A DNA stretch of 64,000 nt from Candidatus Lustribacter sp. (GCA_965277805.1 OZ255842.1:4736001-4800000), one strand, 5' to 3'. Counted from the first letter of the stretch, positions 9,294-25,643 are shown. A program made the numbers and translations. The notes: a model not told the origin generated them from the sequence alone.

Positions 9294-9968
9294 GTGCTCC
9301 AAGCGCTCTTCGGGAACAAGAACAAGGATAAGCGCCGGCATACGCGCCGAGAGAAGGCGTTCTCTGCCGACTGGACTTCCGCGCCCGAAGTTGCCCCGAC
9401 CCCGGTCATCGGACTCGACGTGAGCGCGAGCGGCGCCGGCATTCTCTCGCGCGAAGAGATCAAACAAGAAGAGTTCATTCTTCGGCTCAAGCTCGACGAA
9501 CGCATCATCCCGACCCGCGTGAAAGTTGCGCGGCGGTTACCGGGAACGTTGCAAGGCGCGAAGGCATTCCGCTACGGCGTCGAGTTCGTGAGCATCTCGG
9601 CCGACGATTGGGATGCGGTCGTGCGCTGGTCGAAGGGCGGCGAGGCCGCCGAAGCCAGCAACAAAGTGAAGTCGGATCTCGAGATGGTCAAGATGACCGC
9701 CGACGATGCCGACCGTCTCATGCCGGTCGCGTTGCAAACGAAGTTGCTCAACGGCCTGACCCGCCGCGGCCGCCTCGCGCCGCTCGTGCCGAACCAGCAG
9801 CCGCTCGTCGGGTATTTCTACGGCGGCACGGTCAAACGCAACGGGATGATGATGCACCGTCTGGCGATCGTCTCGCGCGTGGCCGACGTCAACAACGGGC
9901 CGCCGGCCGAGTTCCGCACCATGTTCTACTTCGATGACGCCGGCGCGCACATCGAAATGGGCGATTAA
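9294..9968 (+). CDS. PilZ domain protein with unknown C-terminal domain
   Basis: RRHTRR and DVSASG c-di-GMP motifs; YGVEF strand. Confidence 0.8.
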   Translation: MLQALFGNKNKDKRRHTRREKAFSADWTSAPEVAPTPVIGLDVSASGAGILSREEIKQEEFILRLKLDERIIPTRVKVARRLPGTLQGAKAFRYGVEFVSISADDWDAVVRWSKGGEAAEASNKVKSDLEMVKMTADDADRLMPVALQTKLLNGLTRRGRLAPLVPNQQPLVGYFYGGTVKRNGMMMHRLAIVSRVADVNNGPPAEFRTMFYFDDAGAHIEMGD

Positions 9969-9982
9969 CGCCCAAGCCGCCC

Positions 9983-10921
9983 TCAGTGGCTAGGTTTGTA
10001 GATCATTTGATCGGCGGGAAACGGCGTGAACTTGCTGTATTTCGCCGCGACGTTGATCACCGGTTGTAAGAACGCGGGATTCAACGTCTCGCCGTACCGC
10101 ACGCGCAACATACCGGCGGCGGCGTCCGGATCCATCTTCGCGTACTTCAAGAGAATTTCAGCGCTCTTCGCATGGTTTGCGTTCGCCCATACCGCCGCTT
10201 CGTGAATCGCCGCGACGAAACGGTTGAGCAGGTCGGCGTGATCTTTGGCCCACGCAGCGTTGGTGAAGTAAGCGCTGACGAGAAATTCTTTCGCGATCGC
10301 GTCGTACGGCGCGCCGATGACGCGTTCGGTCTTGCGAGCGACCGATAAGAACGGTTCGGCGATCGTAATCGCGTCGACGCGGCCGGCATCGAGCGCGGGC
10401 TGCATCTGCGGAAACGGCAGTTCGACGAATTTTACCGTGCTCAAGTCGCCGCCGTTGGCCTCGATCCACGCGCGCGGGCCGTAACCGGAGATCGTGCCGA
10501 GGCCCGAGCCTGCGACGATTTTTCCGTTCAGATCTTTCGCGCTGTGAATCGATGAGTTTGCGGAGACCATCAGCAGGTTTACCGGTGCCGTCGACTCGCT
10601 CATGCCGGCCGGTGCGACGACGACGAACGGCACGTTGCGTCCGACGCCCGATGCGATCGAGACCATGTCGGAGTAGCCGATGTCGATCGCATTGCCGGCG
10701 ACCGCCGTCGCCACCGCGCCGCCGTTGGCACCGGCCTGGATGTCGACGTCGATCCCGGCTTTGGCGAAGAAGCCCATGTCCTTGGCGTAGTACACTTCTG
10801 CGCCGGCGTCGATCGGCACGGTCATCACGTGCACGACCGGCGGCGTTTGCGCGCCGGCCGGCAGTGCGAGCGCGCACATCCATATCGCTGCGAGAACAAC
10901 GTTGCGCAGGGTCGATGACAT
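9983..10921 (-). CDS. SsuA/THI5-family ABC substrate-binding protein
   Basis: Signal peptide; GFFAKAGIDV, DLNGK, GRVDA. Confidence 0.88.
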   Translation of the reverse strand: MSSTLRNVVLAAIWMCALALPAGAQTPPVVHVMTVPIDAGAEVYYAKDMGFFAKAGIDVDIQAGANGGAVATAVAGNAIDIGYSDMVSIASGVGRNVPFVVVAPAGMSESTAPVNLLMVSANSSIHSAKDLNGKIVAGSGLGTISGYGPRAWIEANGGDLSTVKFVELPFPQMQPALDAGRVDAITIAEPFLSVARKTERVIGAPYDAIAKEFLVSAYFTNAAWAKDHADLLNRFVAAIHEAAVWANANHAKSAEILLKYAKMDPDAAAGMLRVRYGETLNPAFLQPVINVAAKYSKFTPFPADQMIYKPSH

Positions 10922-12183: not shown

Positions 12184-12561
12184 ATGCAAGACGTTAAGGT
12201 AATCGCGACGCGGTACACCGATCGCGAGAAGACCGATCCAAACGCGCGGATCATGAACCCGGCCGATTTCATCAAAGTGAATCCCGAGAAGCTGCAATCG
12301 GGACGGATGTACGTGGGCGATGAGTTTCGCGCGGTCGTACTGACCTTGACGCCGGGGCAGGCGCAGACGCTGCACATGCATCCCGAAACCTCGCACGCCT
12401 GGTTCATCATTTCCGGCAGCGGCGAAGTGACGATGGAAGACGGCCGTAAAGAGCGTGCGAGCGCCGGCCAGTTTTGCGTGCATCCGCGCAACAGCGTGCA
12501 CGGCATCACCAACGACACGAACGAAAACCTCACCTACATCGCCCTGTCGATCGGCGACTGA
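12184..12561 (+). CDS. Cupin domain protein
   Basis: PGQ.Q.LHMHP and P.N.VHG cupin motifs. Confidence 0.85.
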   Translation: MQDVKVIATRYTDREKTDPNARIMNPADFIKVNPEKLQSGRMYVGDEFRAVVLTLTPGQAQTLHMHPETSHAWFIISGSGEVTMEDGRKERASAGQFCVHPRNSVHGITNDTNENLTYIALSIGD

Positions 12562-12571
12562 GAGAAACACG

Positions 12572-13549
12572 ATGTTGTCAGCGAAAGATTTCCACGGCTT
12601 GTGGGCGATCATCCCGACGCCTTCGAAACCCGGCGCCGATCGCGCCGACGCGGTCGATACGGTGGATCTCGAAGAGACCGCGCGCGTCGTCGACAAGCTG
12701 ATCAAAGACGGCTCCGATGCGCTGATCGTGCTGGGCACGACCGGCGAGTGCGCGACGCTGACGCGCAGCGAATACGAAGCCTTCGTCGACACGGTGCTGA
12801 CGACGGTTAACAAGCGTATCCCGTGCTTCATCGGCACGACGGCGCTCGGCACCCACGAAGTCGTCTATCGCACGCGCTTCGCGCAAGACCGCGGCGCCGA
12901 CGGCATCCTGCTCGGCCTGCCGATGTGGCAGCCGCTCACGGTCGTGCAAGCCGTGGAGTACTATCGCAGCGTCAGCGAGCTGTTCCCGAAACTCGCGATT
13001 CAAGTCTACGGCAACCCGCGCGCCTTCCGTTTTGCGTTTCCACCCGAGTTCTGGGCTGCGGTGGTCAAGGCCGTGCCGAACATCACCTCGGCGAAATACT
13101 CGCGTCCGAAAGCGCTGCTCGAATCACAAGCCGCCTCGAACGGCAAAGTGCACTTTCTGCCCAATGACGGCGGCGTGATGCAGTTCGTCGATCTGGCGCC
13201 GGAAACGACGACGGCCTGCTGGTCGACCGCGGCCTCGATGGGTCCGGAGCCGGCCCTGGCGCAGATCCGCGCGATCCAATCGGGCGACCTCGAGCGCGCG
13301 CGCGCGATCGCCAAAGACCTGAAGTGGACGCGCGAACCGATCGCGCCGATCGTCGCCGACGCCGACCTCTTCGCAAGCTACAACATCCAGCTCGAAAAGA
13401 CGCGCATCGGCCTCGCCGGTTACTGCAAAGCCGGTCCGTTGCGGCCGCCCTACAACGTGTACCCTGAAGAATATCACGCGCTCTTCCAGGAAAACGCAAC
13501 GCGCTGGCGCGAGCTGTGCGAGCGTTACTCGAAGGTAGCCGCTCCGTGA
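12572..13549 (+). CDS. DHDPS-family hydratase-aldolase, NahE/PhdJ-like
   Basis: G.W.I.PTP, TVDLEETAR.V, GTTGECATLT, PMW, YGNP.AF.F.FP..FW, SAKY closely follow NahE as recalled. Confidence 0.85.
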   Translation: MLSAKDFHGLWAIIPTPSKPGADRADAVDTVDLEETARVVDKLIKDGSDALIVLGTTGECATLTRSEYEAFVDTVLTTVNKRIPCFIGTTALGTHEVVYRTRFAQDRGADGILLGLPMWQPLTVVQAVEYYRSVSELFPKLAIQVYGNPRAFRFAFPPEFWAAVVKAVPNITSAKYSRPKALLESQAASNGKVHFLPNDGGVMQFVDLAPETTTACWSTAASMGPEPALAQIRAIQSGDLERARAIAKDLKWTREPIAPIVADADLFASYNIQLEKTRIGLAGYCKAGPLRPPYNVYPEEYHALFQENATRWRELCERYSKVAAP

Positions 13550-14457
13550 CGTCCACTCCGGCCGTGACGGCGGTTCGCAGCGTCGAACTCGGCGTCCGCG
13601 ACCTCGATGCATCATCGGCCTTCTATCAAGACACGTGGCTGCTCGACGAAGTCGCGCGCACACCGACGGCCGTCTATCTGCGCGCGGCCGGATCCGAGCA
13701 CCACGTGCTCGCCATTCACGGCGATCAGCCGTTCGGCGTCGTGCGCATCAATCTCGCGGCACCCGATCGGGCAGCGGTCGACGCACTGCACGACGCAGTG
13801 CTCTCAGCGGCGGTGCCGATCGTCCATGCGCCGCGCGATCTCGATGAACCCGCCGGCGGTTACGCGTTCGCCTTTACCGACTACGAAGGACGGGAGTTCC
13901 GCATCGTCGCCGGCTTGCCCGTACACCGTGAAGTCGACCACTCGAACGACCGGCCGGAGAAGGTGAGCCATATCGTCTTGAACGCCGAGGCGGAGAGCGG
14001 CAGCGCGAAGCTTTTCTGCGAGAAGCTCGGGTTCCGGTTGCGCGATCAAACGGGCCGGGCGAATTTCATCGGCTGCAACGCCGATCATCACAGCCTGGCT
14101 TTCGGCCGCGTCGGCGGCAGCGCGATGAACCACGTTGCGTTCGACATCCACGATCTCGACGGCGAGATGCGAGCGGCCGGCCGCATGAAGCGCGGCGGGC
14201 ATCCGATCGAGTGGGGCGTCGGCCGTCATGGCCCCGGCCACAACGTTTTCGCCTATTTTATCGACCCCAACGGTTACGCCATCGAGTACACGACCGAGAT
14301 GGATCAAGTCGACGATGCAAAATACGTCCCGGGTACACCCGAGACGTGGAAGCGCGCGCCGCACTCGGACGCGTGGGGCATCGCCGACCCGCCGACCCAA
14401 CGTTTTCGCGACGCGATCACCGGAAAGCTAGGTGCTTATGCTGAGTCAACAAGATAA
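13546..14457 (+). CDS. VOC-family extradiol ring-cleavage dioxygenase
   Basis: Two VOC modules; SHIVL, DHHSLA, GRHGPG, YFIDPNGYAIEY; GTGA overlap. Confidence 0.85.
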   Translation: MTSTPAVTAVRSVELGVRDLDASSAFYQDTWLLDEVARTPTAVYLRAAGSEHHVLAIHGDQPFGVVRINLAAPDRAAVDALHDAVLSAAVPIVHAPRDLDEPAGGYAFAFTDYEGREFRIVAGLPVHREVDHSNDRPEKVSHIVLNAEAESGSAKLFCEKLGFRLRDQTGRANFIGCNADHHSLAFGRVGGSAMNHVAFDIHDLDGEMRAAGRMKRGGHPIEWGVGRHGPGHNVFAYFIDPNGYAIEYTTEMDQVDDAKYVPGTPETWKRAPHSDAWGIADPPTQRFRDAITGKLGAYAESTR

Positions 14458-15703
14458 CGAGCGCTTGACGCGGGTCGGCCCCGGCACGCCGATGGGCAAC
14501 CTGTTCCGCCGCTATTGGATCCCCGCGCTGCTTTCCGAAGAGCTGGTCGAGGCCGATGGCCCGCCGGTGCGCGTGCGCTTACTCGGCGAAGACCTGGTGG
14601 CGTTCCGGGACACGGAAGGCGTGGTCGGCATCGTGTCGGCGTATTGTCCGCACCGCCGCGCGCCGATGTTCTTCGGCCGCAACGAAGATTGCGGTTTGCG
14701 TTGCGTGTATCACGGCTGGAAGTTCGATCGCAACGGCGCGTGCGTCGACATGCCGTCTGAGCCGCCGGATTCGCTGTTCAAAACGAAAGTCACGATCGAC
14801 GCCTATCCCACCTGGGAAGGCGGCGGCATGGTGTGGATCTACATGGGGCCGCTGGAGCTGAAGCCGGCGCCGCCGGATCACGAGTTGGTGCGCGCGCCCG
14901 CGAATCACCGTCACGTTTCGAAGCTGTTCGAAGATTGCAACTACCTGCAGGCGCTCGAGGGCGGCATCGATCCGACGCACGCAACGATCCTGCACAACGT
15001 CAAGATCGGCGATCGTTCGTTCCTCAACAAGTACGACGAGCTGGTTGCGGCGCTCGACATCGAGACGACCGATTACGGCTTCACCTACGCCGGCATCCGT
15101 CAGCACGCCGATTTCGACTGGATCCGCGTTTATCACTGGATCATGCCGTCGTATCACATGCGCGGCAGCGTGGCCGGCTTGTTCAACAAGCCCGGACAGA
15201 TCCCGACGATCAACGGCCACATCTGGGTCCCGATCGACGATTACAAGAGCTGGGTGTTCAGCTTCACGTATTCGGCCGATCCGAATCAGCCGATCTCGCA
15301 TGAGCACGTCGAGGAACAGGAAACGCGCCTCGGCCGCGGCACGAATACCGGCCCCGGCTACATGCCGGTCCGCAACCGCTCCAACGACTACCTCATCGAC
15401 CGGCAGTTGCAGAAGACCGAGAGCATGACCGGCATCGCCGGCGTCAACACGCAGGACTACGCATTGCAAGAAGGCATGGGTCCGATCGTCGACCGCACCA
15501 AGGAACACGTCGGTACGACGGATCGCGCTATCATCTTGCTGCGCAAAGTGCTGCTGGACGCGCTCAACACGATGGAAAAGGGCGGTACGCCGCCGGCGGT
15601 CGATCCGTCATCGTACCGCGGCGTGCGCGCGGTCGACCGCACGATTCCCAAGGGCACGGAATGGAAGGTCGTCTGCGAGCCGGATGCGGTAGCGTTGTTC
15701 TGA
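14438..15703 (+). CDS. Rieske non-heme iron oxygenase (phthalate dioxygenase/LigX-like)
   Basis: CPHR...CVYHGW Rieske site; EGGID..H....H; QD. Confidence 0.92.
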   Translation: MLSQQDNERLTRVGPGTPMGNLFRRYWIPALLSEELVEADGPPVRVRLLGEDLVAFRDTEGVVGIVSAYCPHRRAPMFFGRNEDCGLRCVYHGWKFDRNGACVDMPSEPPDSLFKTKVTIDAYPTWEGGGMVWIYMGPLELKPAPPDHELVRAPANHRHVSKLFEDCNYLQALEGGIDPTHATILHNVKIGDRSFLNKYDELVAALDIETTDYGFTYAGIRQHADFDWIRVYHWIMPSYHMRGSVAGLFNKPGQIPTINGHIWVPIDDYKSWVFSFTYSADPNQPISHEHVEEQETRLGRGTNTGPGYMPVRNRSNDYLIDRQLQKTESMTGIAGVNTQDYALQEGMGPIVDRTKEHVGTTDRAIILLRKVLLDALNTMEKGGTPPAVDPSSYRGVRAVDRTIPKGTEWKVVCEPDAVALF

Positions 15704-16815
15704 TGGAATCACAGCACCAGGCGGCCCGGTACGGTATCGATTCCTATCTCGATTGGGTCGCGCACGAGAAGCTGCTCGTGCACACGGGCCTCGCCATCGA
15801 CTGCTTCAAAGTCGAAACGCGCGAGTGGGCGCGCGCCGGCGTGCCTTCGGCCGTGCTCCATCTCGACGGCCGCGGCGACTTCTGCAACGCCTTCGTCTTC
15901 AACATTCCGGCCGGCGGCTCGACCATTCCGCAGCGGCATCTCTACGAAGAGATCGTCTACGTTCTCGAGGGCAACGGCTCGACGCAGATCGAGTTACCCA
16001 ACGGCGAAAAGCGCAGCTTCGAGTGGGGACCGACATCGCTATTTGCGATCCCGCTCAATGCGACGTATCGCCACTTCAACGCCAGCGGTCTCAAGCGCGC
16101 GCTCATCACCACGACCACCAACGCGCCGATGATGCTGAACCTCTTTCACAACGAGCGCTTCGTGTTCGACAACCCGTTCTTTTTCGACGACCGGGTCGGG
16201 AAGCAAGAGTACTTCGCGGGCGAGGGCGTGCTCAACATCGTGCGCCAAGGCAACAATACCTGGGAAACCAATTTCATCGCGAGCCTCGAGACGATCGATC
16301 TGCCCGACTTCTCCGATCGCGGCGCGGGCGGCGGCAACCTGATCTTCCTACTCGCCGACAGCTCGATGCACGCGCATGTCTCGGAGATGCCGGCCGGCAC
16401 CTACAAGAAAGCGCATCGCCACGTCGCCGGCTATAACGTCATGTGCGTGGCCGGCAGCGGCTTCTCGCTGATGTGGTTTGAAGGCGATCAGGAGTACGTG
16501 CGCATCGACTGGCACCACGGCGTGCTCTTTCCGCCCGCGCACCATCAGTTCCACCAGCACTTCACCACGAGCACGGTCGCGGCGCGCTACCTCGCGATGG
16601 GTTTCGGCAGCCTGCGCTATCCGTTCACGCAGGAACGCCGCGACGAAATTCTCGGCAAGGACGTGAAGTTCTCGACCAGCATCAAAAAGGGCGGCGACCA
16701 GGTCGAGTACGAGGACCAGGACCCGCGCATCCACCCCATCTGGCTTGCGGAAATGAAGAAGAACGGCCTCACCCCGCGCATGGACAAATACATCAAGACC
16801 GCCGAACCGGTCTAG
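15703..16815 (+). CDS. Bicupin protein, gentisate 1,2-dioxygenase-like
   Basis: Two cupin domains (QRHLYEE..YVLEG; AHRH...FHQH); TGATG coupling. Confidence 0.75.
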   Translation: MESQHQAARYGIDSYLDWVAHEKLLVHTGLAIDCFKVETREWARAGVPSAVLHLDGRGDFCNAFVFNIPAGGSTIPQRHLYEEIVYVLEGNGSTQIELPNGEKRSFEWGPTSLFAIPLNATYRHFNASGLKRALITTTTNAPMMLNLFHNERFVFDNPFFFDDRVGKQEYFAGEGVLNIVRQGNNTWETNFIASLETIDLPDFSDRGAGGGNLIFLLADSSMHAHVSEMPAGTYKKAHRHVAGYNVMCVAGSGFSLMWFEGDQEYVRIDWHHGVLFPPAHHQFHQHFTTSTVAARYLAMGFGSLRYPFTQERRDEILGKDVKFSTSIKKGGDQVEYEDQDPRIHPIWLAEMKKNGLTPRMDKYIKTAEPV

Positions 16816-17138
16816 GTCGCTTTCCGGGCCTCAAAAACATCGTAGGCGATATTGCCGGCGGAGACCGCACTGGGATGGCCCGCGTAGAACGCGACGTGGG
16901 TCATCATCTCGGCGAGTTCGTCCTGCGTGACGCCGTTGTCGAGCGCGAAGCCGATGTGATAGCGCAACTGATCGGGCCGGTAGAGCGCGGTTAACACAGC
17001 GCAGGTGATGAGGCTGCGGTCGCGCTTGGAGAGTTGCGGCCGCTCCCACACATCGCCGAAGAGCACGTTCATCGCGATGTCCCAAAGTTTGGGCAGCGCC
17101 ATGGCCCACTTGGGCATGTGAGCCGGCTGTTCGGGCAT
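16812..17138 (-). CDS. Carboxymuconolactone decarboxylase family protein
   Basis: LFGDVWERPQLS.RDRSLIT and H.AFYAG.P. Confidence 0.9.
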   Translation of the reverse strand: MPEQPAHMPKWAMALPKLWDIAMNVLFGDVWERPQLSKRDRSLITCAVLTALYRPDQLRYHIGFALDNGVTQDELAEMMTHVAFYAGHPSAVSAGNIAYDVFEARKAT

Positions 17139-17213: not shown

Positions 17214-17657
17214 ATGCCGTTACGCATCGGAGATGCCGCACCCGATTTCACGCTTCAGAGTTCGGATGGCCGCGACGTTGCGCTGTCATCGTTCCACGGC
17301 GCGCAAAGCGTGGTGCTGATCTTCTATCCGAAAGATCAAACGCCGGGCTGCACCAAACAACTGTGCACGGCGAGCAACGACGCGGCGGCGTTCGCATCCG
17401 CGGGCGCCGCGGTCTTCGGCGTCAACGGCGACAACGCCGCATCGCACGAGCGCTTCATCGCCAAGTACCAGCTCGCAATGCCGCTGCTGATCGATCCCGG
17501 CCTTATGGTAGCGAAGGCCTACGACGCCGTTGCCGGCTTCGGTCCGATCAAAATCGTCAACCGCACGGTGGTCGGCATCAACCGCGCCGGCCGCATCGCC
17601 TTCTACCAGCGCGGCATGCCCGACACCCCAACCATCCTCAGCGCTCTCTTGTCCTGA
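17214..17657 (+). CDS. bcp: Peroxiredoxin, BCP/PrxQ family
   Basis: GD.APDFTL; FYPKDQTPGCTKQLC. Confidence 0.9.
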   Translation: MPLRIGDAAPDFTLQSSDGRDVALSSFHGAQSVVLIFYPKDQTPGCTKQLCTASNDAAAFASAGAAVFGVNGDNAASHERFIAKYQLAMPLLIDPGLMVAKAYDAVAGFGPIKIVNRTVVGINRAGRIAFYQRGMPDTPTILSALLS

Positions 17658-17702: not shown

Positions 17703-18170
17703 CTAACCGTCGCTGTACGCGAGGTTATGCCGCACTCGCGCGGCCACGCTCCGAAACGTCTTCAAATCACTCGCACTAATCCCGCGAATGGCATCAGCCT
17801 GAGCGGAGTCGATTGCAGCGCGAATCGGTTGACGTAGCGCGCGGCCCTTGGGCGTGAGGTAGATCAGCGCTTTACGGCGATCCGTTGCGTCCTTGCGGCG
17901 TTCGACGATCTTCGCGCGTTCAAGCGTATCTATCACCGTGACGACCGTCGATGGATCGACGCCGACGCGTTCGCTCAACTCTGCTTGCGAGATGCCGTTC
18001 GTCTCGAACAGCGCGCGCAAATAATAGTAATGCTTGAAGGGGATCCCGATCTTCGCCAGTTCGGCGGCAAAGCGGCGCGACATCGCTTTGTGCGTGTGCC
18101 GCAGTACGTAGCCCACGCCCGAGCTGGACGGAATCGGGATCGCCGCGTCCGGAGATTTTTCTGCGCTCAT
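17703..18170 (-). CDS. MarR-family transcriptional regulator
   Basis: SQAELS...VD.STV...ID.LE...V.R..D..DRR...I.LT.KG. Confidence 0.92.
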   Translation of the reverse strand: MSAEKSPDAAIPIPSSSGVGYVLRHTHKAMSRRFAAELAKIGIPFKHYYYLRALFETNGISQAELSERVGVDPSTVVTVIDTLERAKIVERRKDATDRRKALIYLTPKGRALRQPIRAAIDSAQADAIRGISASDLKTFRSVAARVRHNLAYSDG

Positions 18171-18174
18171 GCTC

Positions 18175-18239
18175 TTGACAATATAATCGAACCCGATTAA
18201 GAATACAAGGACATCCATATATTGGACTTCCAAGTATAT
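18175..18239. promoter_or_regulatory. Divergent promoter region with candidate MarR operator(s)
   Basis: TTGACA at 18175; AT-rich; atataTTGGA-CT-TCCAAgtatat (core 18222-18233) and a weaker GGA-CA-TCC at 18209-18216. Confidence 0.6.
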
Positions 18240-18262
18240 CCACACCCAGCCGGGAGGCCCGT

Positions 18263-18631
18263 ATGACCGAAGTCTTTGCCGGAACGATCGGTGAGATCAT
18301 CGAGAACAACGATCGCACGATCGTCAAACACGGCAAGCTCGAGATCGGCGTTCTGCATCGCAACGGCGAACTTTACGCGTACAACAACCACTGCGTCCAC
18401 CAAGGCGGACCGGCGTGCGAGGGCATGATCATCGCACGCGTCGAGGACGTCATGCTGCCCGACAAGACGGTCACGGGCCAGCGCTTCAACCACGACGAGA
18501 TGCATTTCGTCTGTCCTTGGCACGGCGTGGAATACGATTTGAAAACCGGCGCGTGCGTGCCCAATCCCAAACGCCGCTTGCAAAAATTCGATGTCGTGCA
18601 GAAAGGGAATGAAGTTTATGTCATCATCTGA
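18263..18631 (+). CDS. Rieske [2Fe-2S] ferredoxin
   Basis: CVHQGGP...CPWHG; GGAGG RBS. Confidence 0.92.
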   Translation: MTEVFAGTIGEIIENNDRTIVKHGKLEIGVLHRNGELYAYNNHCVHQGGPACEGMIIARVEDVMLPDKTVTGQRFNHDEMHFVCPWHGVEYDLKTGACVPNPKRRLQKFDVVQKGNEVYVII

Positions 18632-18899
18632 GATGGTCGCAACCTTGACGCCTGAAGGCGCTCTCGAGACGCTCGATTCCGCTGCGTTGCAGCAGCTCGT
18701 CGCCGCCGCGGTGCGCGAGTACGCGAAACGCGCCGATAGCCCGGGCGGCTACTTCCCGATCGTCCCCACGAGTACGATCACCGCAACCGACGCCATGATC
18801 GCGTGCACAGCCTTGCTCAAGGTCGTCAATATCGCCGTGTTCGAGTTGGGCTTGTGGCAATCGTGGGCCGGCGGCATCCCGCAAGAGGTTCCGGCATGA
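18618..18899 (+). CDS. Small hypothetical protein
   Basis: Overlaps both neighbours, which suggests translational coupling; no recognised domain. Confidence 0.7.
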   Translation: MSSSEMVATLTPEGALETLDSAALQQLVAAAVREYAKRADSPGGYFPIVPTSTITATDAMIACTALLKVVNIAVFELGLWQSWAGGIPQEVPA

Positions 18900-20125
18900 C
18901 GTCGACGCTGACGCTTCCTACCAGCGACCCGGGCGGCTTGAACATCACCGAGTTCGATACCCGCACGCTGCTCTCGCACGCCGCCGAACAATCGCGCGCC
19001 AACAACTACAACGATTTCTTCATCTGCGACGTCGACTCGCACCATTACGAGAACGAGTCCTTCGGCGCGATCGTCAAGTACATCGAAGATCCGGTCCTCC
19101 GTCACCAGGCGCAGGTCAGCGCTTCCCGCCGCTCGGGCGCAGGCTTTCTCGGCGGGGCGATCGGCAATCAAGACCAATCGGGCCGCGTGACACGCTACCA
19201 CACGCGGCACATGGATAGTTACCCGCCCGGTTCCCAGCGCGATGCGCACCTCTCGAAAAAGTGGATGGATGCGATGGGCGTTGACATCGCCTTCCTGTTC
19301 CCGTCCCCGATCCTGACGCTCGCCAGCCATCCCGTGCAGCACGTCCAGAATCAATATCTCCGCGCGTACAACTCCTGGCTGACGCAAGAGGTCCTACCGG
19401 CCGAGCCGCGGCTGCGTTCGATGCTATGCCTGCCGTTCAACGACCCGGCGGCCTCCTACCAGATGGTCCAAGACTTCGGCGACGCCAAGGGCGTCTCGGG
19501 TTTCATGATCACGGCGTCGCACAACCGGCCCGTGCATGACAATGCATACATGAAGCTCTACTCGGCGCTCGAAGAGCGCGGTCTGCCGCTCGCCTTTCAC
19601 GGCTCCTACAACTGGGCCGATACGTCGTTCTCGACTGCCAACAAGTTCATCACGGTGCACGCGCTCGGTTTCGTGTTTTACAACATGGTGCACATGGCGA
19701 ACTGGATCATGAACGGTCTGCCGGAGCGCTTTCCAAAGCTGAAGGTGATTTGGATGGAATCGGGCTTGGCCTGGGTGCCGTTCATGATGCAACGCTTCGA
19801 CAACGAGTACCTGATGCGCAGCAACGAGGCGCCGATGCTCAAAATGAAGCCCAGCGAGTACATGAAGCGCATGTACTACTCCGTGCAGCCGCTCGAGATC
19901 CCCGAAGACCTCTCGATCCTGCAGACGACGTTCAAGATGATCAACGCCGAGACGCAGCTGATGTACTCTTCGGACTATCCGCACTGGGATTTCGATCTGC
20001 CGAGTGTGATCTACGACTTGCCGTTCCTCTCCGAGGAAGGCAAACGGAACATCCTCGGCGAGACGGCGCGCAACGTATTCAACTTGGGGCCGCTGCCGAA
20101 GCTCGCCCAAATCCCGGCCGAATAA
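18896..20125 (+). CDS. Amidohydrolase_2-fold protein, candidate dinuclear monooxygenase
   Basis: CDVDSH, AFHG, WMESG, SSDYPHWD motifs; ATGA overlap. Confidence 0.88.
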   Translation: MTSTLTLPTSDPGGLNITEFDTRTLLSHAAEQSRANNYNDFFICDVDSHHYENESFGAIVKYIEDPVLRHQAQVSASRRSGAGFLGGAIGNQDQSGRVTRYHTRHMDSYPPGSQRDAHLSKKWMDAMGVDIAFLFPSPILTLASHPVQHVQNQYLRAYNSWLTQEVLPAEPRLRSMLCLPFNDPAASYQMVQDFGDAKGVSGFMITASHNRPVHDNAYMKLYSALEERGLPLAFHGSYNWADTSFSTANKFITVHALGFVFYNMVHMANWIMNGLPERFPKLKVIWMESGLAWVPFMMQRFDNEYLMRSNEAPMLKMKPSEYMKRMYYSVQPLEIPEDLSILQTTFKMINAETQLMYSSDYPHWDFDLPSVIYDLPFLSEEGKRNILGETARNVFNLGPLPKLAQIPAE

Positions 20126-20128
20126 CCG

Positions 20129-21433
20129 ATGGCCGCGATCGCCCCCGGCGGAGCGGCCCTCGGTTCACCGCTCTCGATCCAAGCCACCGCGCGCATTCGA
20201 GAGATCCTCGAAGGCCGCCGGCGCGGACTGCGCGCGGTGCTGCCGCTCGCCGGACCGGCGGTGGTCGCTTCGGTCGCCTACATGGATCCGGGGAATTTTG
20301 CAACGAACATCGCGGCCGGCTCGAAGTTCGGTTATGGGCTGCTCTGGGTCGTACTGCTTGCAAATGCGGTCGCGATGTTGTATCAGGCGATGTCGGCGAA
20401 GCTCGGCATCGTCACCAATCGCAATCTGGCCGAACTTAGCCGGGCGCATTTCCCGAAGCCGGCCGTGGTCGCGATGTGGCTCGCGAGTGAGGTCGCGGCG
20501 ATGGCCACCGACCTCGCCGAGTTCGTCGGCGGCGCGCTGGGCCTTTCGCTCTTGCTGCATTTGCCGCTGCTCTACGGCATGGCCGTCACCGCGGTGTTCA
20601 CCTATGTCATCCTATGCGTCGAGCCGAGCGGATTTCGTAAGATCGAACTGATCATCGGCTCACTGGTGCTCGCGATCGGCGCGTGTTATCTGCTCGAATT
20701 GTTCATCGTGCCGGCCGACTGGGGTGCCGTGGCCCTGCACTCGGTGCTGCCGCAATTCGGCGGCCCCGGAGCGGTCGCGCTCGCCGCGGGCATCGTCGGC
20801 GCAACGATCATGCCGCACGCGATCTTTCTGCACTCCGGGCTCACGCAAGATCGCGCACCCGCTCGGAGCGACGCCGAGCGGCGTTCGCTCGTTCGCTATT
20901 CGAATCGCGAGGTCGCGATCGCGCTATCGTTCGCGGGCTTGATCAACGTCGCGATGGTCGTGATGGCGGCCGCCGCGTTTCACGCGGGCCATAGCGGCGT
21001 GGCAGAGATCCAGACGGCGTATTACACGATGGTCCCGCTGCTCGGCGCCGCGGCCGGACTGGTGTTTCTCATCTCGCTGATGGCATCGGGTATCTCGAGT
21101 TCGGTCGTCGGGACGATGGCGGGGCAAATGATCATGCAAGGCTTCGTCGGCTTCAGCATTCCGGTCTGGCTACGGCGCACCATCACGATGGTACCGGCGT
21201 TCGTCGTGATCGCCCTCGGCATCAACGTGACCAACGCGCTTGTGGTCAGCCAGATTGCCCTGAGTATCGTGCTGCCTATCCCGATGGTTGCGCTGCTCGT
21301 GCTCAGCCGAAAACGTTCCTTGATGGGCAGCTTTACTGCCGGCCCGACGTTGCTCACATTTGCTGCTGTCGCGATCGTGGCGATCGTCGGGCTCAACGCG
21401 GTGCTCGTGGTCGGGGCGATCGGAGGGAATTAA
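20129..21433 (+). CDS. mntH: Nramp divalent metal (Mn2+/Fe2+) transporter
   Basis: YMDPGN and IMPH signature motifs; starts 3 nt after the amidohydrolase stop. Confidence 0.95.
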   Translation: MAAIAPGGAALGSPLSIQATARIREILEGRRRGLRAVLPLAGPAVVASVAYMDPGNFATNIAAGSKFGYGLLWVVLLANAVAMLYQAMSAKLGIVTNRNLAELSRAHFPKPAVVAMWLASEVAAMATDLAEFVGGALGLSLLLHLPLLYGMAVTAVFTYVILCVEPSGFRKIELIIGSLVLAIGACYLLELFIVPADWGAVALHSVLPQFGGPGAVALAAGIVGATIMPHAIFLHSGLTQDRAPARSDAERRSLVRYSNREVAIALSFAGLINVAMVVMAAAAFHAGHSGVAEIQTAYYTMVPLLGAAAGLVFLISLMASGISSSVVGTMAGQMIMQGFVGFSIPVWLRRTITMVPAFVVIALGINVTNALVVSQIALSIVLPIPMVALLVLSRKRSLMGSFTAGPTLLTFAAVAIVAIVGLNAVLVVGAIGGN

Positions 21434-21460: not shown

Positions 21461-22114
21461 TTATTGGATCACGGCCTCGCAATGCTCGAGACATATCACG
21501 TTGTGGCCGAGGATCGAGACGCACTGCTCGACGCAAACGCTGTAATCGGGGCTGACGGCCGTCGACGCGTTGATCATCGACAACGTGGCGATGCCGGTAA
21601 CTTGCGCCGAGCCGTCATCGCCGATCAAGTCAGGACGCTTTGCGAGGCTCGACAGTACCGCGTTCGTGAGTACGATACCCGCCTCCATCGGCGTGCCGGC
21701 GCGCACGACTGAGCCGGCGAGTGCTTGCTCGAAGGGCGCGGGATTTTTCAGCGGGGGCCCCGGCGTGACGAGCCCCATAAGCGTCCGATCGTCCGGTGGC
21801 TTATGCGCGGCCGGCGTTTCGGGGTGAATTGTCGTGCACCGCGTGTAGCAGAGCACCTCCTGATCGAAAACTTTCCAGCACATGGTGCTACACAGGATCG
21901 TATCGAGTGGTCCCTCGCCGGCGGCCGCTGCCGGTGCAACCGTTACCGCGAAGGGGACGACCAGACTCTTGCCGTCTTCGGACGTGATTTTATGTGCCAT
22001 CGCGCTGCGCATGATGGACTTCATAAAGAGCACGCCGAGTTCTTCGGCGGAAGTCAGGGTCGACGCAAGCTGCGCGTACGGTTTTGCCGACCCGTGTGAA
22101 CCACCCTGAGCCAT
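21461..22114 (-). CDS. Hypothetical protein with tandem Cys-rich domain
   Basis: GAGGGGAG RBS; two copies of CxxxC-x9-CxxxC. Confidence 0.7.
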   Translation of the reverse strand: MAQGGSHGSAKPYAQLASTLTSAEELGVLFMKSIMRSAMAHKITSEDGKSLVVPFAVTVAPAAAAGEGPLDTILCSTMCWKVFDQEVLCYTRCTTIHPETPAAHKPPDDRTLMGLVTPGPPLKNPAPFEQALAGSVVRAGTPMEAGIVLTNAVLSSLAKRPDLIGDDGSAQVTGIATLSMINASTAVSPDYSVCVEQCVSILGHNVICLEHCEAVIQ

Positions 22115-22226: not shown

Positions 22227-23156
22227 TCATAGCAGTTCGCGCGCGTCGAACCCCTTCGGGAGTTGCTTGTATTTTGCCATCAGATCGATGACCGGCTGGA
22301 TGGCGGCGGCGTTGAAGCTCGTCGCGGTATAGCCGTGGCGCATGTCGGTGGCGACATTCAGCTCCATGCCGGTGAGCGGCAGCAGTAGCGGGATCGTTTC
22401 CTTGACGTGCGTGTTCGCGTAACCCGCGGCGGCTTCGATCGCCTTGCTGAAGCCCGCGACGGCTTCTTTGTTCTTCGCCGCATAATCGCGCGTGCAGAAG
22501 TACACGACTTCCAGAATCGGCCGCGGATAGCCTAAGAGTTCGTCGACGAAGTAGCGCAGCTTGCCGGCCCGTACCGCTTGCATCATGCCCGGTTCGCCCA
22601 TCAGGCCGGCGTCGACGCGCCCTTCTTCGAGCGCGATCGCGACCGCGTTGAACGGCATCTCGACGAACTTCACCGTTGACGAATCGCCGCCGCGCGCATC
22701 GATCATCGCGCGCAGACCGAGATAGGCGATATCGCCGATCGCGCTGCAGGTCACCGTTTTGCCTTGCAGGTCGAGCGGCGTCTTCAGCGGTGAGTTCGCC
22801 GTGACGAGATATCCCGCGGTCGGATCGCCTTTGCGATACGACAATCCCGGCGCGATCACGGTGAACGGGATGCCGCGCGCGTAGGCGGCGATGATCGAGG
22901 TGACGCTGGCCTTACCGATGTCGGCTGCGCCGCCGACGATCGCTTGCGCGACGATCGCGCCCGTGCCGGCCGGTTGTAGCGTTACCTCGACGCCGTTATC
23001 GCGGAAGAGCCCCGACGTCTGCGCGTAGAGCAGCGGACGCAGATCGTCGGCGACGGTCGAGATGAAGTGCACCGGCGTGAGTTTCTCGCCGGCCGCCAGC
23101 GCCGTTCCGGCCGCGGCAGCGAACAAACCCTGGAGCATGAGCGCGCGTGTCAGCAT
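22227..23156 (-). CDS. SsuA/THI5-family ABC substrate-binding protein
   Basis: GAAGG RBS; DLQGKTV.C.AIGD; GRVDAG. Confidence 0.88.
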   Translation of the reverse strand: MLTRALMLQGLFAAAAGTALAAGEKLTPVHFISTVADDLRPLLYAQTSGLFRDNGVEVTLQPAGTGAIVAQAIVGGAADIGKASVTSIIAAYARGIPFTVIAPGLSYRKGDPTAGYLVTANSPLKTPLDLQGKTVTCSAIGDIAYLGLRAMIDARGGDSSTVKFVEMPFNAVAIALEEGRVDAGLMGEPGMMQAVRAGKLRYFVDELLGYPRPILEVVYFCTRDYAAKNKEAVAGFSKAIEAAAGYANTHVKETIPLLLPLTGMELNVATDMRHGYTATSFNAAAIQPVIDLMAKYKQLPKGFDARELL

Positions 23157-23190
23157 GGGACCTTCCTTCGTCAGACCATTCATCGAACGT

Positions 23191-23664: not shown

Positions 23665-24672
23665 GTGAAGTTCGGCGTTTTTGATCATCTCGACCGTAAC
23701 GATTTACAACTCGCCGACTTTTACGAGCAGCGCCTCGATTTCGTTGAGCTCTACGATCGTTTGGGTTTCTACAGCTACCATCTCGCCGAACATCACGGTA
23801 CGCCGCTCGGTATGGCATCATCACCGAGCGTGTTTCTTTCCGCCGTTGCGCGCCGCACGAAGCGCCTGCGTTTCGGCCCGATGGTGTACTTGCTGCCGCT
23901 CTATCATCCGATTCGTTTGGCGGAAGAGATCGCGATGCTCGATCAGCTCGGCCGCGGCCGGCTCGATGTGGGCGTCGGACGCGGCCGCTCGCCGATCGAG
24001 CTGCAGAGCTTCGGCGTCAATCCGGCCGTAGCCGAAGCGGTGTACGAAGAATCGCTCGAGATCATCCGGCGCGTGCTGAGCGACGGCGTCGTGAATTTTA
24101 GCGGCACGCACTACACCATGAGCGACGTGCATATCCAGATGCGTCCACTGCAGACACCGCATCCGCCGCTTTGGTATGGGATCGGCTCGCTCGGCGGCGT
24201 CGACAAATTCGTTGCTGCCGATTTTAACGTCATCACGATCTCGAAGCCCGCGTTGGCCGGCGAACTCGTGCGCAAGTATCTCGATACCGCAGCGAATGCC
24301 GGCAAGGATTTGCTCGCGGGCGTGAGCCGGTTCGTCGTCTGTGCCGATACGACCGATCAAGCGCTCAAGATCGCGCGCCGGGCGTATCCCTTCTGGCACA
24401 AGAGTTTCGACTATCTCTTTGCGATTCACGGCCTGCGCCCGGTGCAGGCGTGGCCGGGCAGCTTCGATGCGATGGCGGCCGACGGCCTCGCATTTGCCGG
24501 CTCGCCCGACGATCTTACCGAAGCGCTATCGGCGCATATGGACCAGATCGGCGCGAACTATTTCGCCGGCCAATTCGTTTTCGGTGACATGACGGTCGAA
24601 GAAGGCCGCCGGTCGATCGATCTCTTCAGCCAAAAAGTCATGCCGGCCCTTGCCGGCGCGGTTTCTGCTTAA
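23665..24672 (+). CDS. LLM-class (luciferase-like) flavin-dependent monooxygenase
   Basis: MKFGVF, LAEHH, HPIRLAEEIAMLD.L..GR...GVGRG, P.Q.PHPP. Confidence 0.92.
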   Translation: MKFGVFDHLDRNDLQLADFYEQRLDFVELYDRLGFYSYHLAEHHGTPLGMASSPSVFLSAVARRTKRLRFGPMVYLLPLYHPIRLAEEIAMLDQLGRGRLDVGVGRGRSPIELQSFGVNPAVAEAVYEESLEIIRRVLSDGVVNFSGTHYTMSDVHIQMRPLQTPHPPLWYGIGSLGGVDKFVAADFNVITISKPALAGELVRKYLDTAANAGKDLLAGVSRFVVCADTTDQALKIARRAYPFWHKSFDYLFAIHGLRPVQAWPGSFDAMAADGLAFAGSPDDLTEALSAHMDQIGANYFAGQFVFGDMTVEEGRRSIDLFSQKVMPALAGAVSA

Positions 24673-24680
24673 GGATTCAC

Positions 24681-25643
24681 ATGGATTTCCGGAACATCAT
24701 TCGCACCTCAGTTCGTTTGAGCGCGGCCCTTGTCGCGCTTTTCGTTGCCACGGCGGCAACGGCGCCCGCGCAACCGGCCCTGACGACGATCCACTTCATC
24801 TCCTCGGCCAGCGACGATCTGCGGCCACTGCTGTACGCGCAGAGTGCGGGCCTCTTTCAAAAAGCCGGACTCAACGTGGTGGTCGACAAGGCCGCGAGCG
24901 GCGGCGTGGTCGCGCAGGCGATCATCGGCGGCGCCGACGACATCGGCAAGGCGAGCCTCGTTTCGCTGATCGCCGGCTACGCTCGCGGCGTACCGTTCGC
25001 GATGATCGCGCCGTCGGCCGTCCATCTGAAAGACGACGCAAACTCCGGGATCATGATCGCGGCGAATTCCCCGCTCAAATCAGTCCTCGACTTGCAAGGC
25101 AAGGTCGTCGGTTGCACGGCGATCGGCGACATCGGGTATCTCGGCACGCGCGCGATGATCGATTCGATGGGCGGCGACTCGGCGACCGTGAAATGGGTCG
25201 AAATTCCCATTGCGACGCTCGCGCCCGCCGTCGAGCAAGGCCGCGTCGTTGCGGGCTTGACGACCGAACCGTACATGTCGAAGGACTTAGCCTCCGGTAA
25301 GTTCCGCATTCTCACGGACATGCTCAACGGCTACTCGAAGCCGATCCTCGAATCGGCGTTCTTCTCGACCCGCGACTATGCAGCGAAGAACCACGACGCC
25401 GTGGTCAAGTTTGCGAAGGTGATGTCGCAAGCAGCCGGCTACGCGAACACGCACATCCCGGAAACGCTGCCATTGATGGTTTCGTTCAGCGGCATGGATC
25501 CGGAAGCGGCTGCGAAGATGCACAAAACGCAAACTGCGCTCTCGTTCGATCCCTCGGCACTTCAACCCGTGATCGACGCCGCGGCCAAATATCAGATCAT
25601 CCCGAAAGGCTTCTCGGCGCGCGACATGCTCGCGCTGCCCTGA
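24681..25643 (+). CDS. SsuA/THI5-family ABC substrate-binding protein
   Basis: Signal peptide; DLQGKVVGCTAIGD; paralog of 22227 and 28275. Confidence 0.88.
   Translation: MDFRNIIRTSVRLSAALVALFVATAATAPAQPALTTIHFISSASDDLRPLLYAQSAGLFQKAGLNVVVDKAASGGVVAQAIIGGADDIGKASLVSLIAGYARGVPFAMIAPSAVHLKDDANSGIMIAANSPLKSVLDLQGKVVGCTAIGDIGYLGTRAMIDSMGGDSATVKWVEIPIATLAPAVEQGRVVAGLTTEPYMSKDLASGKFRILTDMLNGYSKPILESAFFSTRDYAAKNHDAVVKFAKVMSQAAGYANTHIPETLPLMVSFSGMDPEAAAKMHKTQTALSFDPSALQPVIDAAAKYQIIPKGFSARDMLALP

Follow-up and report, generated by a model that had tools for sequence, protein, structure and literature searches.

What kind of enzyme would be made together with a Rieske ferredoxin and a divalent-metal importer, and which metal would it use? 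These questions are raised by a locus of Candidatus Lustribacter sp. (GCA_965277805.1), at 17703-21433 of the 64,000-nucleotide stretch analysed here (OZ255842.1:4736001-4800000; the window). The genus is placed in the phylum Vulcanimicrobiota by tree-tool labels. An initial annotation had read the locus as an O2-activating, Mn-cofactored monooxygenase operon with its own importer. Hydroxylation of C-H bonds is the reaction of amidohydrolase-related dinuclear oxygenases (AROs), a class recognised only recently, with some 17,000 members that mostly carry a wrong 'amidohydrolase' annotation; the metal choice of each ARO is a current question in the field. The family was published in 2024 and 2026 (Liu et al., JACS 2024, PMC10811679; JACS 2026, PMC13154177), its initial discovery having come from neighbouring Rieske-ferredoxin genes. 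The core idea of the initial annotation is not new, as AROs had already been defined by the same guilt-by-association logic, and the ARO core of the operon is an already known kind of system. What goes beyond the main texts of these papers, neither of which mentions a small partner protein or an SLC11 importer in an ARO operon, is a conserved small partner, an SLC11 linkage within the genus and a set of conflicting predictor residues.

Organization of the locus

Five genes were confirmed, coupled as tightly as had been described. They and their neighbours are as follows.

14432-15703: LigXa-like Rieske oxygenase, upstream of the operon
16812-17138: AhpD/CMD-family gene, beside the operon
17217-17657: peroxiredoxin, beside the operon
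17703-18170, minus strand: MarR-family regulator, 155 aa from the ATG at 18170 (PF01047, 47.1 bits; PF12802, 45.7 bits)
18171-18262: divergent control region, 92 bp, with a promoter-like pair and a palindrome
18263-18631, plus strand: small Rieske [2Fe-2S] ferredoxin, 122 aa (PF00355, 44.1 bits)
18618-18899, plus strand: small helical protein, putative partner, 93 aa, not assigned to any named family, with ...VFELG[LM]WQSW as its C-terminal motif
18896-20125, plus strand: PF04909 protein, predicted ARO, 409 aa (73.9 bits; cut-off 26.4)
20129-21433, plus strand: MntH, predicted SLC11/Nramp divalent-metal importer, 434 aa (NF001923, 481.6 bits; cut-off 430), the last gene of the operon

The Rieske gene and the small ORF overlap by 14 nt, the small ORF and the PF04909 gene share an ATGA overlap, and mntH starts 3 nt past the TAA stop of the PF04909 gene. 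We infer from the sequence that the operon genes are co-transcribed. At 2.5-4 kb upstream there are genes for the LigXa-like oxygenase and for a bicupin. No reductase gene was found in 1-40.6 kb of the window.

The MarR ORF was listed with 180 aa from an upstream GTG; the ATG at 18170, which agrees with the alignment of its relatives, was taken as the start, and the intergenic region is thus 92 bp. In NCBIfam, the regulator matches the Saro_0803 family best, though with 60 bits it stays under the cut-off of 200, and a divergent MarR gene also accompanies the orthologues and paralogues in the genus. In the control region, TTGACA (-35-like, 18175-18180) and AAGAAT (-10-like, 18199-18204) form a promoter-like match at 10/12 positions. 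The palindrome noticed earlier, TTGGA-CT-TCCAA, is present downstream of this pair at 18222-18233, but its arms, of 5 bp each, are too short for significance by themselves. It was not reported by a repeat search with a 6-nt seed, and it is exact only in the window and the two nearest orthologous loci (G004, G003), being absent from G005 and G002, where there are TCCA boxes alone. TTGACA and two TCCA boxes are invariant across five aligned orthologous control regions.

The PF04909 protein as an ARO

Signature motifs, ligand columns, the ranking of PDB profiles and AF2/Foldseek matches together identify the PF04909 protein as a predicted ARO. The ARO signature consists of D-x-H and D-x-P-H-x-D, and both motifs are reported to be missing from characterised PF04909 hydrolases and decarboxylases (PMC13154177). 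The ligands proposed in the initial annotation were found as D45-V-D47-S-H49, H235, E288 and D360-Y-P-H363-W-D365, giving D47, H49, H235, E288, D360 and H363, plus D365, as candidate metal ligands. D47-S48-H49 lies within modelled strand 44-50, in keeping with the N-terminal D-x-H that AROs carry on the first beta strand as ligands of metal site 1, and is aligned with D-V-H of SfbO; H49 is invariant and D47 at least 90% conserved in 41 relatives, with N in two loci (L015, L024). D360-Y-P-H363-W-D365, a C-terminal D-x-P-H-x-[D/E] motif with at least ~200 preceding residues, is invariant in the same relatives. H235 and E288 do not vary either, and 8SM7 and SfbO have His and Glu at the aligned positions; tentatively, they can be taken as the remaining site-1 and bridging ligands. 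Overall, the ligand columns are those of SfbO in HMMER alignments. The suggested comparison with known AROs recovered every aligned metal ligand.

The best PDB matches are 8SM7 (1.2e-39), 8SM9, SfbO (8SM6) and AibH2, compared with 4e-13 for LigW and 3e-5 for ACMSD; the clustering with these decarboxylases that would have spoken against an oxygenase was not seen. With the family profile, five Rieske-linked AROs score 5e-52 to 2.5e-33, PtmU3 1.4e-17 and LigW 8.5e-17. An AF2 model (pLDDT 83.9, pTM 0.86) has AROs as its top Foldseek matches (8SM7, SfbO, AibH2; TM 0.69-0.73). The proposal of a dinuclear-type oxygenase with one PF04909 gene and a Rieske ferredoxin thus agrees with the motifs and nearest structures; two bound redox metals and O2-dependent oxygenation are predicted.

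The Rieske ferredoxin and the small helical protein

The ferredoxin displays CVH...CPWH cluster ligands (C-x-H...C-x-x-H), belongs to PF00355, is shorter than 250 aa and neighbours an ARO, as do small Rieske ferredoxins of the AibG/SfbR-like type. Rieske ferredoxins adjoin such AROs and their docking is supported (PMC10811679; PMC13154177). We presume that the ferredoxin is the electron donor to the oxygenase, electrons probably flowing in that direction. In 74/80 related loci a Rieske homologue immediately precedes the ARO gene or the small ORF, and in 51/80 the small ORF sits between the two, a gene order beyond chance.

The small ORF, in which a second ATG at 18633 would yield 88 aa, has no Pfam or NCBIfam match, and 32 members of its family gave no Pfam match either. 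Homologues were found in 1119 clusters (50% identity) at E<=1e-3. The AF2 model is helical (pLDDT 82.8), and hhalign of the small protein against the ARO gave a probability of 0.2%. Six homologues are fused in frame to the ARO and one (P0151) to a Rieske ferredoxin. The placement in 51/80 loci, the translational overlap and these fusions support the 93-aa ORF as a genuine gene whose product is a conserved partner of the ARO, in keeping with the small accessory subunit first proposed. Activity or metal loading may depend on it, and if so, this could matter when subfamily members are expressed alone.

Which metal is used

Mn-dependent (low-potential) AROs have a hydrophobic γ1, a hydrophilic γ2 and an aromatic γ4, while di-iron (high-potential) AROs have a hydrophilic γ1, a hydrophobic γ2 and a non-aromatic γ4, all three being required (Table 1, PMC13154177); γ1 is x of D-x-H, γ2 the end of the second beta strand and γ4 x in P-H-x-D. 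Ser is counted as hydrophilic at γ1, five of five tested AROs with a hydrophilic γ1 formed no Mn(III)Fe(III), and γ2 is >95% Phe/Tyr in the di-iron cluster (PMC13154177). The window ARO has Ser48 at γ1 and an invariant Phe135 at γ2 (the end of modelled strand 131-136), where the Mn class has hydrophobic and hydrophilic residues, respectively; its invariant γ4, Trp364, is aromatic as in the Mn class, and γ5 is Phe366. At the position of Phe135, SfbO and 8SM7 have Thr and 8SM9 has Gly; from the description in PMC13154177, we infer that this Thr is γ2. Among the 80 related loci and the window, γ1 is Ala in 50, Ser in 28, Gly in 1 and Cys in 1, with one locus truncated. Ala is hydrophilic on the octanol scale.

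Since γ1 and γ2 fit the di-iron class and γ4 is Trp, the window ARO fits neither annotated metal class: Ser and Phe point to di-iron, Trp to manganese. Of the Mn cofactor put forward at first, γ4 can be said to agree and γ1 and γ2 to disagree, and the metal used (Mn and/or Fe) appears ambiguous.

The importer itself is compatible with either metal. MntH aligns over its full length with Deinococcus MntH 8E5S (DraNramp; E 5e-115), and its M-D-P-G-N and A-T-I-M-P-H agree with the DxxN/AxxM site signature of canonical Nramps as given in PMC8806188. It can be assigned to the canonical SLC11 (Nramp) transition-metal importers, with transport predicted. Canonical Nramps of the MntH type import Fe2+ as well as Mn2+. 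This leaves a minority but real possibility that the enzyme is a di-iron (high-potential) ARO, with MntH supplying Fe2+, or raising Mn2+ against reactive oxygen from an uncoupled oxygenase instead of providing a Mn cofactor. Such an enzyme would be in line with γ1 and γ2, Ser48 being shared with PtmU3, and a defence against reactive oxygen with the adjoining peroxiredoxin and AhpD/CMD-family genes. However, G004, the nearest relative, is alone in keeping the latter two genes; G005 and G002 lack them, and none was seen among the Pfam-scanned genes flanking the paralogous module. Further, the aromatic γ4 does not fit the di-iron row of Table 1 (PMC13154177) either, and the protein groups with the Mn-using branch by its γ4 Trp and γ5 Phe, by its Rieske linkage and by similarity overall. 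The second importer type found behind these AROs also argues against di-iron: the transporter of the paralogous module matches only EleNRMT (PDB 7QIA; E 4e-46), with a site of D-G-P-S/A-T-V-T against the published DxxG-TxxA/T, and EleNRMT was shown to transport Mg2+ and Mn2+, the latter being carried by canonical Nramps too (PMC8806188).

Linkage of SLC11 importers to AROs

The slot behind the ARO in related modules is usually occupied by a substrate-uptake gene: TctC occurs in 30/80 related loci, typically just downstream of the ARO, and an NMT1-type binding protein follows the ARO in three loci of the genus, a fourth giving a weak match. In nine of 19 genus ARO loci, an SLC11 gene is directly downstream, five being canonical MntH and four NRMT-like. 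The dedicated Mn supply proposed earlier is consistent with the genus, where all five canonical mntH copies found in eight genomes are directly behind an ARO, but not with loci outside it: mntH is near 1/78 AROs, there with its own MntR-like regulator gene, and an ARO near 1/80 mntH genes. The suggested neighbourhood survey thus bore out the Rieske and small-protein genes and found Nramp genes rare beyond the genus.

The ARO subfamily was found in 6/7 other genus genomes and in 0/33 other genomes of the family, order and class, with as many as eight module copies in one genus genome. A quick tree puts the 16 AROs from the genus in a single clade, surrounded by proteobacterial relatives (SH-aLRT 99). 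The module seems to have entered the genus by horizontal transfer and to have multiplied there. It could have landed by a resident transporter in the genus ancestor and been copied as a block, so that adjacency would be a historical accident with no functional tie. Apart from this distribution, an accident would account for the 10/19 genus modules without an SLC11 gene in the available flank, and the NRMT-like gene, resident in the class (39/41 genomes) and widespread there without an ARO, may be what the module landed beside. We nevertheless consider an accident improbable, as the same slot is filled by two different SLC11 clades and canonical mntH was found in the genus only behind AROs, its closest outside relatives being proteobacterial, not from the host's class. 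In addition, the five-gene core has been kept in two paralogue lineages diverged to 73% (ARO) and 63% (MntH) identity, with ARO-SLC11 gaps of 3-50 nt in the genus and changed flanks, and the pairing recurs in a separate Caulobacter cluster (Rieske-small-ARO-MFS-MntH). A role of the importer in metal supply is also in line with two of four extra-genus loci (L117, L118), where NRMT-like orthologues are directly behind a DtxR/MntR-family regulator gene.

It is very improbable that the PF04909 protein is a non-redox LigW/ACMSD-type decarboxylase or hydrolase whose neighbouring Rieske ferredoxin serves the LigXa-like oxygenase: PF04909 includes decarboxylases, and a LigXa-like gene lies upstream here, as others do close to the module in some related loci (L039, L048, L064), but the protein has both ARO motifs, the gap between LigW or ACMSD and the AROs holds with the family profile, and the Rieske gene stays with the small ORF and the ARO regardless of neighbours, the LigXa block being syntenic in G004 only.

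Proposed mechanism

The gene identities, the ARO signature and ligands, the conserved synteny, the fusions and the genus-wide ARO-SLC11 linkage are established at the sequence level. Based on these observations, we think it reasonably probable that the locus encodes, under MarR control, a multicomponent ARO-type monooxygenase, with an importer co-expressed for metal loading. A reductase encoded elsewhere would reduce the Rieske ferredoxin, from which electrons would reach the two-metal site in the amidohydrolase-fold oxygenase. This site would activate O2, and an organic substrate, probably an aromatic or heteroaromatic carboxylic acid, would be hydroxylated or oxidatively dealkylated. The 93-aa protein would be a stoichiometric partner of the oxygenase that may act in assembly, ferredoxin docking or metal loading. 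The presumed purpose of the co-expressed MntH would be to bring in Mn2+ and/or Fe2+ to load the newly made enzyme.

A bolder version, which we hold to be rather doubtful, is that AROs of the large subfamily with Ser/Ala at γ1, Phe at γ2 and Trp at γ4 depend in vivo on a cofactor that contains Mn, despite failing the published rule, metalation being secured by an SLC11 Mn2+ importer on the same substrate-induced transcript and by the three-helix protein, whose dedicated task would be loading or ferredoxin docking. If true, the oxygenase system would have four parts, and the supply of its cofactor would be coupled to synthesis of the enzyme. The genus offers a natural example of metal importers from two SLC11 clades built into ARO operons, the subfamily having conflicting predictor residues, and the cofactor of this subfamily bears on how far the published γ1/γ2/γ4 rule generalises.

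Comparison with known systems

The best sequence and fold matches to the window ARO are SfbO/SfbR and the TruffO proteins D3EI84 (8SM7), W7L2Y2 (8SM9) and B6JH23 (8SM8), which are Rieske-linked AROs (PMC10811679; PMC13154177), yet identity is only 21-27% in Foldseek alignments. Shared with SfbO/TruffO are the PF04909 fold, six or seven ligand positions, D-x-H and D-x-P-H-x-D, and aromatic residues at γ4 and γ5; in both, one gene encodes the oxygenase and a small Rieske ferredoxin is encoded beside it. In contrast, γ1 is Ser in the window (Ser/Ala in the subfamily) and Val/Ile in SfbO/TruffO, and γ2 is Phe as opposed to Thr/Gly/Gln. The window ARO is also ~40-50 residues longer, including a conserved, poorly modelled loop (78-114), and its locus has an extra conserved small partner gene and, in the genus, an SLC11 importer in the operon.

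The 2-aminoisobutyrate hydroxylase AibH1H2/AibG/AibF (PDB 6M1W, 8FUL-8FUO) likewise has a Rieske gene in its operon. Its ARO catalytic subunit, AibH2 (E 3.3e-26), has a Mn/Fe cofactor (PDB titles; PMC10811679) and needs the inactive amidohydrolase-fold AibH1, whereas the window has one PF04909 gene and an unrelated 93-aa helical protein. PtmU3 (PDB 6OMP), a di-iron ARO of platensimycin biosynthesis, shares the ARO fold, the motifs and γ1 Ser but is much more distant (E 4.7e-19; profile 1.4e-17). The last motif residue of PtmU3 is a metal-bound Glu, and the di-iron ARO group is largely without a Rieske partner (PMC13154177). Finally, the window MntH is alike over its full length to DraNramp (8E5S and others), with DPGN/AxxM kept; the SLC11 genes here end operons of a substrate type (MarR), not units controlled by MntR/Fur.

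Gene organization and control region

The locus had been read in the initial annotation as a candidate operon for a Mn-cofactored amidohydrolase-fold monooxygenase with its own Nramp importer. The ORF list and family scans confirmed the five-gene arrangement that it described, with a divergent regulator followed by four genes on the opposite strand.

Genes of the predicted operon (window coordinates)
17703-18170, minus strand: MarR; likely start at ATG 18170 (ORF list and family scans)
18263-18631, plus strand: Rieske ferredoxin, 122 aa, with C-V-H and C-P-W-H cluster ligands
18618-18899, plus strand: small protein, 93 aa, without a Pfam or NCBIfam match
18896-20125, plus strand: PF04909 protein, 409 aa (family scans), assigned below to the amidohydrolase-related dinuclear oxygenases (AROs)
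20129-21433, plus strand: MntH (NF001923, 481.6 bits; cut-off 430)

The ATG is the likely MarR start; a longer, GTG-started ORF would overlap the promoter region. The operon junctions are, in order, a 14-nt overlap (Rieske/small protein), an ATGA overlap (small protein/ARO) and a 3-nt gap (ARO/MntH). Promoter-like TTGACA-18-AAGAAT lies in the 92-bp intergenic region. The palindrome reported earlier, TTGGA-CT-TCCAA, is present at 18222-18233 and is a plausible candidate operator; however, its arms are just 5 bp. The two closest orthologous regions retain it, whereas two that are more distant do not, and there the invariant elements are limited to TTGACA and a pair of TCCA boxes. Just after mntH lies an ORF of 217 aa (21461-22114, minus strand) with no Pfam or NCBIfam match. 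In G004, the nearest genome, no equivalent ORF occupies this position and an NMT1-type gene directly succeeds mntH; the ORF could be a recent insertion or might not code for protein at all.

The PF04909 protein belongs to a published oxygenase family

Searches with the PF04909 protein place it among the AROs. In phmmer against the PDB, the best matches were 8SM7 (1.2e-39), 8SM9 (1.1e-28), SfbO (8SM6, 4e-28), AibH2 (3.3e-26) and PtmU3 (4.7e-19), with decarboxylases far weaker (LigW, 3.9e-13; ACMSD, ~3e-5). A profile of 41 relatives widened the gap between Rieske-linked AROs and LigW: five of these AROs scored from 5e-52 to 2.5e-33, PtmU3 1.4e-17 and LigW 8.5e-17. Foldseek ranked the same AROs first when given the AlphaFold2 model (pLDDT 83.9, pTM 0.86). 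The protein carries D47-S-H49 near its N-terminus and D360-Y-P-H-W-D365 near its C-terminus, and its H235 and E288 correspond, in the alignments, to a His and a Glu in SfbO and 8SM7. These ligand positions are invariant among 41 aligned sequences, except for the nearly invariant D47.

The class was named by Liu et al. (2024, PMC10811679; 2026, PMC13154177). According to these papers, it counts about 17,000 sequences, is defined by N-terminal D-x-H plus C-terminal D-x-P-H-x-[D/E], and had members discovered through adjacent small Rieske ferredoxins. The earlier structural guess of a dinuclear oxygenase was therefore right but not new, both the enzyme class and its ferredoxin partnership being already in print.

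Genomic neighborhood and possible role

Related loci were collected as the best 80 of 597 relatives (51-73% identity). These come mostly from Xanthobacteraceae and other alphaproteobacterial MAGs, the rest being a few actinobacterial loci, one from Gemmatimonas and two from Candidatus Lustribacter. By tblastn, a Rieske ferredoxin lies just 5′ of the ARO or of the small ORF on the same strand in 74 of the 80 (at least 800 nt of upstream sequence was available in 77), a small-ORF homologue sits between Rieske and ARO in 51, and an MntH homologue occurs in three, two of them Lustribacter records. Neighbors of the same 80 loci were clustered roughly by a longest-ORF proxy, which called some spurious antisense ORFs as well. 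In 30 loci there were TctC-family carboxylate receptors, typically just 3′ of the module, along with ABC ATPases (20 loci), FAA-hydrolase-family proteins (15), glyoxalase/extradiol-dioxygenase-type proteins (11), two clusters of NMT1-type binding proteins (9 and 5), cyclases (9) and TauE (8). Taken with the window's upstream genes for a LigXa-like oxygenase, a bicupin and extradiol-type proteins, these neighbors suggest that the module may serve in catabolism of an organic carboxylate, probably aromatic or heteroaromatic.

The upstream genes form a packed four-gene block (12455-16815, plus strand) of DHDPS-family, glyoxalase/extradiol-dioxygenase-type, LigXa-like Rieske oxygenase and bicupin genes that looks like an aromatic-ring catabolic unit. 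Synteny of the block is confined to G004, as is that of the wider LigXa/bicupin/CMD/peroxiredoxin flank. Four NMT1/THI5-like ABC substrate-binding genes lie within 20 kb (6123-7088, 9983-10921, 22227-23183 and 24681-25643), one of which adjoins a luciferase-like monooxygenase (23665-24672). Three genus paralogues likewise have an NMT1-type binding protein 3′ of the ARO, and a fourth shows a weaker match there. Elsewhere in the window's genome, a weak Rieske-like match (27%) comes immediately after a distant PF04909-like gene (L089, G000:C1 ~2326111-2327260; 25% identity), and the two may represent a further ARO-ferredoxin pair.

A conserved small partner protein

The 93-aa protein had been proposed as an accessory subunit, and its distribution (51 of 80 loci, six ARO fusions and one Rieske fusion) supports a conserved partner of the enzyme, whose role may be an accessory one. 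Its conserved core ends in T-A-T-[DE]-x-M...L-L-x-A...V-F-E-L-G-[ML]-W-Q-S-W. A profile search of 1.84 billion representatives returned 1119 clusters at E<=1e-3, of which 709 reach E<=1e-10. Almost all of the 150 proteins listed (56-220 aa) carry the domain at the C-terminus or close to it, and homologues, where named, are called "hypothetical protein". In six of the 51 loci (L006, L008, L009, L053, L065 and L075), spread over two separate parts of the ARO tree, it is fused in frame to the ARO as one ORF. P0151, a database protein of 245 aa from one public 36-kb contig, joins a Rieske ferredoxin through an Ala/Pro/Lys-rich linker to the small-protein domain at its C-terminus. The fusions stem from MAGs, and assembly errors are possible among them. 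Even so, the fusions, combined with a constant gene position and the overlap of stop and start codons, point to a physical partner. A word-based search with the window's small protein found no extended (fused) forms; the same search run with the family alignment gave at least 48 proteins, mostly N-terminally extended, plus one Rieske fusion. The ARO fusions of the related loci are not among the matches listed.

The AF2 model (pLDDT 82.8) has three main helices and one short one, a predicted fold that resembles nothing solved: Foldseek found no PDB structure at E<=0.001, a wide VIA-align search reached a best Z of 3.8, and the protein Atlas offered no usable match. Pfam found no common family among 32 members, and hhalign detected no homology to the ARO (probability 0.2%). 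Complex prediction of the ARO with the small protein scored 0.00 and was counted neither for nor against. No small accessory protein or subunit is mentioned in the main texts of PMC10811679 and PMC13154177.

Linkage of AROs to SLC11 importers

At E<=1e-80 among 40 relatives, the ARO subfamily was found in six of seven other genus genomes, several of these assemblies being merely 72-84% complete, and in none of 33 from other genera, families or class. The genus holds 19 ARO loci. Canonical MntH lies directly 3′ of the ARO in five (the window, G004, G005 twice and G003), and a gene of the divergent clade resembling Eggerthella lenta NRMT (EleNRMT) does so in four (G000, the window's own genome; G001, G002 and G006). 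The other ten have neither type within flanks of up to 1.5 kb (~0.5 kb in one); there, the next genes encode NMT1-type binding proteins, a UbiD-family decarboxylase or a TPP enzyme. All five canonical mntH copies found in the eight genus genomes, present in four of them, are directly behind an ARO.

A quick IQ-TREE ML tree was built from 95 rows, with two loci entered twice (L010/L100 and L012/L098) and L045, the split G003 gene and the broken L107 and L111 left out. In it, 16 genus AROs form one clade (SH-aLRT 99), with the MntH-linked AROs in one subclade and the NRMT-linked in two. Paralogue lineages at 73% (ARO) and 63% (MntH) identity share the five-gene core only, when wider flanks are compared. 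The split G003 orthologue (L099/L103, G003:C4 ~263928-265155) matches in two pieces in different frames (query 1-170 and 170-409), because of a frameshift in the gene itself or an error of assembly; the MntH beside it is intact.

The window's genome encodes five Nramp-family proteins and a second ARO, about 64-65% identical to the first, in a complete paralogous module (L093:6871-10622, G000:C1 ~2154870-2158620).

Genes of the paralogous module (L093 coordinates)
10140-10622, plus strand: MarR, 44% identity to the window MarR
9705-10103, minus strand: Rieske ferredoxin, 57% identity
~9452-9676: small protein, 49% identity
ending at 8232: the second ARO
6871-8220: NRMT-like Nramp, last gene of the module

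Among the neighbors of this module are an M24 peptidase/creatinase-type gene, a bicupin, an FAA hydrolase and a dienelactone hydrolase. The two importers differ in type. The window MntH has a strong match in Deinococcus MntH (E 5e-115) and retains DPGN/AxxM. In contrast, the only PDB match of the paralogous module's Nramp is the Mg2+/Mn2+ carrier EleNRMT (E 4e-46); the site residues of this Nramp are D-G-P-S / A-T-V-T, against the published DxxG-TxxA/T.

NRMT-like genes occur in 39 of 41 genomes of the class, with the unpublished G015 and G036 counted in. We examined one additional copy from the genus and, from other genera, four close orthologues; two of these four (L117 and L118) lie directly behind a DtxR/MntR-family regulator, the usual setting of transition-metal uptake genes. 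Import of an organic substrate by the NRMT-like Nramp was rejected because of this setting and the sole PDB match, and because mntH in a Caulobacter cluster is accompanied by an MFS gene of its own kind, distinct from the importer. The L117 and L118 orthologues (L117:3601-5615 and L118:4222-6250; 60% identical, from two other genera of the class) have regulators with a FeoA-like domain, and L118 is also adjoined by a Fur-family domain gene.

The best 80 relatives of the window MntH are proteobacterial (59-69% identity). Among them, Caulobacter sp. S45 (L177:510-5272) encodes on one strand a Rieske ferredoxin, a distant small-protein homologue (hhalign 97.7%), an ARO (51% identity), the MFS transporter and, after 22 nt, MntH. 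This cluster is an independent parallel of the ARO-MntH pairing. A Gemmatimonas locus (L017) was downgraded to mere proximity because its mntH precedes its own DtxR/MntR-like gene. The linkage is thus lineage-restricted but consistent within the lineage, across two SLC11 clades, with one independent parallel. The claim of a dedicated importer holds only within the genus (9 of 19 AROs), and we have moderate confidence that the linkage reflects functional metal supply.

Which metal

The Mn cofactor originally proposed for the window ARO is possible, though somewhat less likely than not. Overall similarity, Rieske linkage and aromatic residues at the metal-predictor positions γ4 and γ5 (Trp364 and Phe366) fit the low-potential, Mn-using branch (L-AROs). 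Mn2+ is also the substrate common to characterized members of both importer clades, as PMC8806188 indicates; abstracts describe canonical Nramps as carriers of both Mn2+ and Fe2+. However, Table 1 of PMC13154177 requires a hydrophobic γ1 and a hydrophilic γ2 for Mn, and both residues break this rule: γ1 is Ser48, identical to the residue of di-iron PtmU3, and γ2 is Phe135, at the end of modeled strand 131-136 and aligned with a Thr of SfbO. The window ARO fits neither the Mn nor the di-iron row of that table. Across the best 80 of 597 relatives and the window, γ1 is Ala in 50, Ser in 28, Gly in one and Cys in one, with one locus truncated; γ2 is always Phe in the best 80. The Caulobacter ARO has Ala at γ1 and Phe at γ2 and γ4. 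PMC13154177 reports that Mn(III)Fe(III) did not form in any of five AROs tested whose γ1 is hydrophilic, and it describes one of them, A0A2K8M2W4, as having "higher homology to L-AROs". Its membership in the window ARO subfamily would bear directly on the Mn question.

Comparison with known AROs

Overall, the initial observation is confirmed and its interpretation partly supported. The locus lends itself to testing how AROs select their metal and are assembled, and is set apart from known AROs by its conserved small partner, its operon-embedded SLC11 importers and its conflicting metal-predictor residues.
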